Shown: positions 2,282 to 2,518 of the stretch, in pieces | Layout: every line of letters begins with the position of its first letter | Numbering within the stretch: position 1 is the first letter of the stretch | Source of the DNA: a virus | Lineage: Duplodnaviria > Heunggongvirae > Uroviricota > Caudoviricetes | DNA: 14,640 nt | IMG/VR virus record: IMGVR_UViG_2630968342_000015 | Reading direction: 5' to 3' (one strand) | Program-made: the position numbers and the translations under genes | The notes under the pieces: model-generated | Databases searched by the model: none | Seen by the model: only the letters and a program-made list of their open reading frames with translations | What the model was told of the DNA's origin: nothing

Positions 2282-2473
2282 TTATCCTTTGGGTTCTATA
2301 CCGCGCCGCTTTAGTTCAGTACGCCCCAACTCTTTAAGCCAGTTGGCTAGGCTTATGCCGTCGCTCTGTGCTTCTTTATCGAATTGCTCTTTTAGCTCTG
2401 GAGAAATTCGCATTCTGAATTGTGGGGATTGCCCGTCCCCTTTAGGGCTTTTATCGCGTTTGATTGTTGACAA
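2282..2473 (-). CDS. Arc-family ribbon-helix-helix DNA-binding repressor
   Basis: SPQFRMRISPELKEQFDKEAQSDGISLANWLKEL aligns by eye with P22 Arc (MPQFNLRWPREVLDLVRKVAEENGRSVNSEIYQRV). Start appears to be TTG at 2471-2473 with SD-like AGGTGA upstream; the only in-frame ATG would delete the beta-strand. Confidence 0.6.
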   Translation of the reverse strand: MSTIKRDKSPKGDGQSPQFRMRISPELKEQFDKEAQSDGISLANWLKELGRTELKRRGIEPKG

Positions 2474-2518
2474 GTGGTCACCTATTGAATTAGCCTTTCT
2501 ATTGTTAGGTGGTCACCT
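2474..2518. promoter_or_regulatory. Candidate operator: direct repeat GTGGTCACCT at 2474-2483 and 2509-2518 in the divergent control region
   Basis: Two exact 10-bp copies 35 bp apart, each with a near-palindromic GGTCACC core. The first overlaps the SD of the Arc-like gene. A perfect TTGACA hexamer at 2467-2472 could be a plus-strand -35. Confidence 0.45.

Follow-up and report, generated by a model that had tools for sequence, protein, structure and literature searches.

An Arc-like ribbon-helix-helix gene, its candidate operators and a SymR-like antisense RNA at the head of the early operon of an Escherichia coli phage satellite

Among the closest described regulatory systems, Stl of the Staphylococcus aureus pathogenicity islands (SaPIs) is a large helix-turn-helix (HTH) protein, while in the immI region of phage P22 the repressor gene lies divergent from the promoter it controls and the operators sit inside the overlapping, opposed promoters Pant and Pmnt. 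In P22 immI a short antisense RNA, sar, also lies over the ribosome-binding site of the first downstream gene, as is familiar from the Susskind and Sauer literature. The present study concerns a stretch of 14,640 nucleotides (IMG/VR record IMGVR_UViG_2630968342_000015; hereafter the window), which is a capsid-forming phage satellite of E. coli, of the phage-inducible chromosomal island (PICI) type, inserted in tqsA. The 830-bp stretch between alpA and an icd-like gene in this satellite holds a module consisting of a gene for a 63-amino-acid (aa) Arc-like ribbon-helix-helix (RHH) protein, two candidate operators (O1 and O2) and an antisense RNA. On comparative sequence evidence, we consider it likely that the 63-aa protein is an Arc/Mnt-type RHH repressor of the satellite early operon, acting at O1 and O2 and autoregulated. 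The question of a global repressor in Gram-negative PICIs was described as 'unclear' by Fillol-Salom et al. 2018 (PMC6092414), and Tommasini et al. 2023 (PMC10111431) reported a dynamic 'Bro zone' with C4/CI-type immunity RNAs, leaving an RHH repressor and antisense RNA unmentioned. No paper describing the module turned up in a literature search on RHH repressors and SymR-like RNAs of PICIs. RefSeq annotation of the window by the Prokaryotic Genome Annotation Pipeline (PGAP) was obtained via strain G1/2, whose sequence is 100% identical. The comparison set was drawn from one-genome-per-species GTDB contigs, in which 106 relatives were confirmed and 80 loci kept, approximately 75 of them distinct; these loci are Enterobacterales satellites, each oriented on the RHH gene.

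An earlier note on this DNA, made from the letters alone, had described an open reading frame (ORF) for a 63-aa Arc-like protein with a TTG start, convergent to alpA and divergent from the early operon (the icd-like gene and primase operon), and the frame, its coordinates and its orientation were all confirmed (Table 1). The 54 homologs identified (in Escherichia, Providencia, Proteus, Morganella, Xenorhabdus, Erwinia, Pantoea, Dickeya, Pectobacterium, Serratia, Edwardsiella and others) are almost all 63-64 aa long and retain the N-terminus MSTIKRDKSPKG, which indicates that translation begins at the upstream codon and not at an internal ATG. The proposed Arc-like fold was likewise supported. 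The protein matched PHROG 228, 'Arc-like repressor', with an E-value of 5.1e-7, and a profile search of all PDB sequences returned P22 Arc as the best match (E 0.0044; approximately 25-28% identity to Arc), while the Pfam Arc family (PF03869) gave E 0.14 and 12.4 bits against a cut-off of 20.4. In the alignment, PQFRMRI of the repressor stands opposite PQFNLRW of Arc, placing Q18, R20 and R22 at Arc Q9, N11 and R13, which we take to be the base-contacting residues of the Arc-operator structure (1par); R22 is invariant across homologs. The structure prediction that the note had suggested as a check on the fold yielded an AlphaFold2 (AF2) model with helices at residues 25-37 and 42-56 after an extended segment (pLDDT 80.9 overall, approximately 90 over residues 21-60). 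A beta-strand is predicted at about residues 18-24 (PQFRMRI), where the model shows the extended segment and where a strand forms only in the dimer. Foldseek comparison of the model with the PDB placed Arc structures at ranks 1-7 (1myl, 1par, 1b28 and 1bdv among them), with probabilities of 0.97-1.00 and target TM-scores of 0.70-0.89, and with E-values of 0.07-0.2 that are not significant for a domain so small. Homology and modelling together indicate that the 63-aa protein is a real, conserved Arc-like RHH regulator. A tblastn search of phage genomes with the repressor protein gave only five weak or fragmentary matches, so it is not a common phage repressor.

The two exact copies of GTGGTCACCT reported in the divergent region (2474-2483 and 2509-2518) are present and are the only two in the 14.6-kb window, in which shuffled sequence is expected to give approximately 0.6 matches even with one mismatch allowed. 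As the note had stated, one of them lies over the Shine-Dalgarno (SD) sequence of the repressor gene: copy 1 abuts the start codon and holds AGGTGA on the minus strand. The suggestion that the repeats are operators of the RHH protein is supported by co-variation of their cores with its beta-strand (see below), but the proposed unit, GGTCACC, should be replaced by a 12-bp dyad, AGGTGNNCACCT (AGGTG-GT-CACCT), and the direct repeat extends to 17 nt. O1 overlaps the SD and the first two bases of the start codon, and it falls short of the perfect dyad because its end is the start codon; in L008, the sole locus with a CTG start, O1 is perfect (12/12). The distance between O1 and O2 is 35 bp in the window and 33-35 bp across the approximately 75 loci, with AGGT-N4-ACCT as the general dyad. 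The layout common to these loci, read in the sense of the RHH gene, consists of a structured region, TGnTA, O2, approximately 22 nt, O1, the start codon and TCA AC, such that O2 (AGGT-N4-ACCT) falls at about -45..-34 and O1 (AGGT-N4-AC) at -10..-1 relative to the RHH start. The cores of O1 and O2 are identical in 57 of 77 loci and differ by at most one mismatch in 67, and L006 has O1 in the orientation opposite to that of O2, which is what one would expect of a dyad site. Chance is ruled out mainly through conservation and co-variation in approximately 75 loci and not through the count within the window.

Each class of beta-strand is accompanied by an operator core of its own, giving at least six specificity classes. 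The strand PQFRM (QxR), which includes the window, goes with the core GTGACCAC in all eight of its loci, and PQFKM (QxK) goes with GTGGCCAC or GAGGC[CT]AC in four of four. The largest class, PTFQI/M (TxQ), has GTACGTAC in 42 of 51 loci, followed by PAFQI/V (AxQ) with GTACACAC or GTACATAC in four of five, PPFHM (PxH) with GTGTACAC or GTGCACAC in four of four, and P[MLI]F[NS]V ([MLI]x[NS]) with GTATAGAC or GTATGGAC, also in four of four. The co-varying positions, 18 and 20, coincide exactly with the ones opposite Arc Q9 and N11 in the alignment. Inside the single GTACGTAC class the first early gene can be Icd-like, SymE-like or a member of a 176-aa family, and thus the operator tracks the repressor and not the regulated genes. 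A joint change of two sites and a protein in each class would be hard to explain unless the protein recognizes the sites. Read as a specificity code, the classes predict that the substitution R20K shifts preference from AGGTGACCACCT to AGGTGGCCACCT (GACC to GGCC cores) and that a TFQI strand shifts it to AGGTACGTACCT.

The perfect TTGACA that the note had placed over the repressor start codon is there, overlapping it by two bases; it is best assigned as the -35 hexamer of the divergent early promoter, P_E, and not to the repressor's own promoter. The hexamer is the reverse complement of the six bases from base 2 of the start codon, through the Ser2 codon (TCA), to base 1 of codon 3. Ser2 is encoded by TCA in 72 of 75 loci, compared to only 28% of the Ser codons elsewhere in the gene, a bias that points to a DNA-level constraint marking the -35 of P_E. 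At 18-nt spacing, the consensus TAnnnT is found across 75 loci with T in 55, A in 60 and T in 60. The start of P_E is predicted near 2503, in which case O1 would fill the spacer and O2 would cover about +5..+16 of the early transcript. For the promoter of the RHH gene (P_RHH), the bases T-G-n-T-A directly 5' of O2 are kept in 66 (T), 58 (G), 59 (T) and 60 (A) of 69 loci; T at position 4 of O2 is conserved in every listed locus, and TGnTA together with four O2 bases forms TGnTAnnnT. P_E and P_RHH are therefore predicted to face each other with their starts a few bp apart, and polymerase binding to the two should be mutually exclusive. Both autoregulation and repression of the divergent early promoter, as proposed in the note, fit this conserved promoter geometry and appear well supported by the comparison of loci.

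A conserved antisense RNA, absent from the earlier note, was identified between the repressor gene and icd. Its 5' end is placed 3-5 nt behind the icd ATG, and it spans the icd start codon and SD, with an anti-SD in the loop of hairpin 1. A 15-bp hairpin (2579..2543) followed by a U-run, between O2 and icd, was called as a terminator on the minus strand only. In the window, the antisense region folds at -37.7 kcal/mol on the minus strand (z -5.6) compared to -23.3 on the plus strand, and the RHH-sense strand is the more stable in 75 of 75 loci (mean -28.4 versus -19.6 kcal/mol), with 370 G-U pairs against 88. The consensus structure was obtained from a covariance model built on a 17-sequence seed, which replaced a MAFFT and RNAalifold analysis of 45 sequences in which stems were misaligned and the consensus was poor. 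The model gave one match per matched locus, always at the same place and on the same strand, and two in L074, which has two RHH copies. In the model-fitted alignment of 63 distinct sequences, 94% of cells are paired and 21 of 25 pairs show compensatory changes; compensatory cells number 289, compared to 92 in shuffles (none of 500 reached the observed value) and at most 39 in slid controls. A candidate -10 box, TAnnnT, occurs in 60 of 64 distinct loci, invariably at -12 relative to the AGCCAT anchor. The RNA has the layout features of SymR, in that it is cis-antisense to the ribosome-binding site and start codon, its promoter lies just inside the target ORF, and it forms two hairpins. The Rfam SymR model (RF01809) had no match on the window's 261-nt region 2440-2700 even at E<=10, and gave sub-threshold matches at the same place in L019, L029 and L074 (35, 29 and 28 bits, compared to a gathering threshold of 61). 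The RNA is SymR-like, but not a member of the Rfam SymR family. An immunity RNA of the P1 C4 or P4 CI type is unsupported here, as Rfam scans of the window and of 2440-2700 found no curated family; rnk-leader and microRNA (miRNA) matches in the window scans are chance. The first early gene, approximately 130-140 nt upstream of the RHH start, varies among loci (Icd-like, SymE-like with IVGYRP...GKWLREAGF, or the 176-aa family; L019, L063-L066 and L070-L081), while the layout of antisense RNA and repressor is constant. Such variation is a hint that satellite modules of this kind gave rise to E. coli symE/symR.

Table 1. Features of the repressor module and neighbouring genes (positions in the window; descending numbers denote the minus strand)
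Feature	Position	Strand	Basis or remark
int	1-1218	+	
alpA	1593-1781	+	
Intrinsic terminator ending the repressor-orf57 unit	1961..1926	-	14-bp stem, then U7
Small basic ORF (orf57), 62 aa, 57 aa from second Met, ...ARKRRRRK...	2239..2051	-	36 homologs; phrog_21027 E 1.6e-15
Arc-like RHH repressor gene, 63 aa, TTG start	2473..2282	-	ORF list, homologs, profile and fold searches
P_E -35 hexamer, TTGACA	2467..2472	+	72/75 distinct loci
O1, AAGTGGTCACCT on +, AGGTGACCAC+TT on -	2472..2483	both	11/12 dyad match, same position in ~75 loci
Candidate P_E -10, TAGCCT, 18-nt spacer	2491..2496	+	consensus TAnnnT
O2, perfect 12-bp dyad AGGTGGTCACCT	2507..2518	both	O2-anchored alignment of 69 loci
Candidate extended -10 of P_RHH, TGtTAAGGT, overlapping O2	2523..2515	-	predicted start near 2508
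SymR-like cis-antisense RNA, ~80 nt	~2614..2534	-	terminator scan, folding, covariance model
Candidate antisense-RNA promoter -10, TATGAT, inside first icd codons	2626..2621	-	conserved TAnnnT
icd-like gene, first of early operon	2608-2805	+	NCBIfam phage_ICD_like E 5.8e-18; PGAP annotation
Primase gene	ends 5238	+	

Taken as a repressor acting at O1 and O2, the RHH protein would bind as a dimer that sets a two-stranded beta-sheet (PQFRMRI) on each site. P_E would drive icd, DUF4222 and primase rightward; bound repressor would block P_E via O1 and O2 and its own promoter via O2, such that the early/replication operon would be off and repressor synthesis limited, resembling P22 Mnt at Pant/Pmnt. 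The antisense RNA, if constitutive, would mop up leaky early transcripts at the icd ribosome-binding site and serve as a second lock, making the icd-like gene the predicted target of both the repressor (via P_E) and the RNA. With regard to induction, the repressor may be overridden by transcription that AlpA drives rightward from alpA, reading through the repressor gene in antisense and on into the early operon: the other genes are unidirectional and both minus-strand terminators work one way, so read-through of this kind could cross the repressor gene. A GC-rich 7-bp hairpin without a U-run was also observed right behind the alpA stop (1788-1806, plus strand; dG -16.3 kcal/mol, z -4.0), which may tune how much transcription passes from alpA to the repressor gene and early operon.

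Several observations weigh against this interpretation. Published genetics of E. coli PICIs stress the activator AlpA and report no repressor (PMC6092414), and in other Gram-negative PICIs the Bro zone carries immunity RNAs at this position (PMC10111431). The -10 of P_E is weak in the window (TAGCCT), P_RHH has no -35, and the promoters and start sites are all predictions by consensus, just as binding and repression are read from comparative computation. The specificity classes probably amount to approximately six evolutionary events, so that the co-variation, though strong, does not count as many independent cases. The antisense RNA has no U-run in some clades; transcripts there may read into the repressor gene, and the RNA may in part be a repressor leader. 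Finally, the tqsA-site island of E. coli O157 carries a different module in place of this gene.

There are several potential alternatives to an autoregulated repressor of the early operon. In one of them, the RHH protein would be a master repressor truly of the Stl type: it alone would switch the island, and a helper-phage protein would inactivate it by binding to it directly. Immunity regions do offer a parallel, both in the placement of the gene at the start of the early operon and in the conserved, exchangeable specificity classes, and the helper specificity of EcCIEDL933 (HK106, HK446) is unexplained (bioRxiv 10.1101/2022.09.08.507074). However, AlpA is needed for induction, its over-expression is sufficient in EcCICFT073, and helper phages turn on its expression (PMC6092414); EcCIEDL933 is likewise alpA-dependent according to the capsid-forming PICI (cf-PICI) paper (bioRxiv 10.1101/2022.09.08.507074). 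In addition, a 17-residue N-terminal arm is all that the protein has in the way of an extra domain for a ligand; it is not related to Stl, and its gene, unlike stl, points away from int. Operator copies are also not enriched in viral contigs outside satellites: a scan of such contigs for the O2 15-mer gave 27 matches, 11 beside an RHH homolog (satellites) and 16 isolated, the latter being about the chance level by a rough estimate of the collection size. A master switch of the Stl type is unlikely.

It is very unlikely that the RHH protein is an accessory DNA-processing factor (for excision or directionality, for recognition of a packaging site or origin, or of the relaxosome-like NikA/TraY/MobA type) with the dyads as assembly sites. 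The gene does adjoin the int/alpA recombination module, and TraJ and MobA show up as weak NCBIfam similarities and NikA as a Foldseek match. The sites, however, are locked to the conserved -35, -10, extended -10, repressor SD and start codon; no copies were found at the island ends or in the iteron field at 5240-5480, where the repeat is a different one; and the closest relatives in sequence and fold are transcriptional repressors of the Arc type.

Many homologs are named 'HicB family antitoxin' in their NCBI source annotations, which would make the protein the antitoxin of a type II toxin-antitoxin (TA) pair and the repeats the operator of a TA operon. The RHH part of Pfam HicB (PF05534) is indeed the best Pfam match (E 4.9e-4), there are weak RelB and MazE7-like similarities, and a small ORF follows the repressor gene in E. 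coli. The Pfam score, however, is 20.4 bits, under the cut-off of 21, with only residues 17-47 aligned to profile positions 18-48 of 51, and a protein of only 63 aa does not have the N-terminal HicB domain (partial RNase H-like, HicA-neutralising). The downstream ORF matches no Pfam or NCBIfam family, HicA and other toxins included, and also follows an unrelated regulator of the YlcI/YnfO type. Across the 80 loci there is no conserved partner ORF, many having none within 250 nt and the rest having ones unrelated in size, and in annotated contexts the next gene is the convergent alpA or Bro-N. The operators, moreover, lie within the promoter from which the divergent early operon is read, and an antitoxin identity is highly improbable. 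Hardly credible, despite its long open frame and its annotation as RefSeq WP_001304194.1 in strains G1/2 and EDL933, is the 247-aa plus-strand ORF (1839-2582) as the real gene with the minus-strand RHH ORF as its shadow: it has no family match at all, is found truncated or labelled a pseudogene in every case where the module has been swapped, is absent as a full-length antisense ORF over the RHH gene from most related loci and not kept open there in other genera, contains a strong minus-strand terminator, and runs opposite minus-strand proteins kept at constant length across genera (RHH) and across E. coli (orf57), such that this PGAP ORF is probably spurious and hides the repressor in E. coli O157 annotations.

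The small basic ORF behind the repressor gene, orf57, is conserved in islands of E. coli and Shigella, its homologs there being 57-70 aa long (64-98% identity), and is probably co-transcribed with that gene. The terminator that ends this unit folds at -25.2 kcal/mol on the minus strand (z -4.4) compared to -15.0 on the plus strand (z -2.0). In the tqsA-site island of E. coli O157:H7 PV15-279 (L002), orf57 lies behind a 101-aa YlcI/YnfO-family protein that occupies the RHH slot (3083-3290). This island keeps orf57 and the antisense RNA (80 bits with the covariance model), while the RHH gene and its operators are swapped; the regulator there has inverted repeats of its own, GGTGTGTTTCATG-9-CATGAAACACAC, with a further GTGTATACTGAAACACACC. 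Homology between the RHH family and the YlcI/YnfO protein was rejected, as profile comparison gave a probability of 1.4%, despite a weak NCBIfam hint. By analogy with heteroimmune phages, the swap looks like the behaviour of exchangeable immunity cassettes.

The RHH gene is always located between alpA (or Bro-N) and the early operon, and in each of the five contexts for which genes were called, all other satellite genes run on the other strand. Among its contexts are cf-PICIs as well as one classical and one helper-embedded PICI. The module was found in 217 of 5426 complete E. coli genomes, and a 100% identical copy is present in the cf-PICI of E. coli O157:H7 EDL933, beside roxA/pepT. The EDL933 island (in L083) may be the published EcCIEDL933, whose size it fits. 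In the window, the icd-like gene is followed on the plus strand by a hypothetical gene, DUF4222 and primase, and then by capsid, protease, portal, connector, HNH and terminase genes. The interruption of tqsA is apparent from a RefSeq partial tqsA on one flank (L001, 1-313), and the right end of the window (14476-14640, minus strand) has an ORF that resembles the N-terminus of TqsA, as judged by eye only. Directly after the primase gene, the region 5240-5480 is densely filled with GGTGAACAGT/ACTGTTCACC (at least 10 copies, occurring in both directions) and tandem TGGTGAATAGT, and this repeat field is very likely the satellite replication origin (iterons); it also gave chance miRNA-like Rfam matches.

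These findings provide a concrete and widely conserved candidate repressor for the silent state of Gram-negative PICIs, one whose operators are defined, whose promoters are predicted and which is paired with an antisense RNA, and the identical copy in the EDL933 cf-PICI offers an experimentally tractable strain background. The naturally matched repressor-operator pairs supply a ready-made code of RHH-DNA specificity as well as a collection of orthogonal parts, and two annotation errors are corrected, namely the name 'HicB antitoxin' and the 247-aa ORF called on the wrong strand. An Arc/Mnt-style switch combined with a SymR-like antisense lock is a candidate immunity module of Gram-negative phage satellites. 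A broader possibility, which we put forward only tentatively and with some doubt, is that the cassette of RHH gene, operators and antisense RNA is the exchangeable immunity module of a large share of Gram-negative PICIs and cf-PICIs, with at least six operator specificities and non-homologous replacements, in which AlpA read-through past two one-directional terminators flips bistable face-to-face promoters, and of which K-12 symE/symR would be a domesticated remnant.

Compared to known systems, the proposed role is one held in common with SaPI Stl and with Rpr of Gram-positive PICIs, that of silencing the satellite early/replication operon from a divergent promoter region. There is no homology between these proteins and the 63-aa RHH protein, however, and the RHH gene is oriented opposite to int and alpA, whereas stl is co-oriented with int. 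The database name goes back to the C-terminal RHH DNA-binding motif that HicB antitoxins (PF05534) have in common with the repressor. P22 immI, with Mnt and Arc, likewise uses small RHH repressors, and Arc is the best match in both sequence and fold. The satellite shares with it a divergent repressor gene, operators in opposed promoters and an antisense RNA over the ribosome-binding site of the first gene. It differs in having two separate 12-bp dyads 33-35 bp apart, compared to the 21-bp Arc operator and 17-bp Mnt operator of P22, in a repressor without the C-terminal tetramerisation helix of Mnt, and in the genes controlled, which are early/replication genes in the satellite but the antirepressor in P22. 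The antisense RNA of the satellite, in turn, resembles SymR and not P22 sar. As in SymR/SymE of E. coli K-12 (RF01809), the RNA begins a few nt behind the start codon of its target and its 5' AGCCAU pairs with GUGGUU, an anti-SD hairpin comes next and then a terminal hairpin with a GUGUUGGCGCAC loop, and the target is SymE-like in several loci. The difference is that the target in the window is Icd-like, with a sense promoter predicted to be under the RHH repressor, whereas, reportedly (Kawano et al. 2007), the sense promoter of symE is under LexA.

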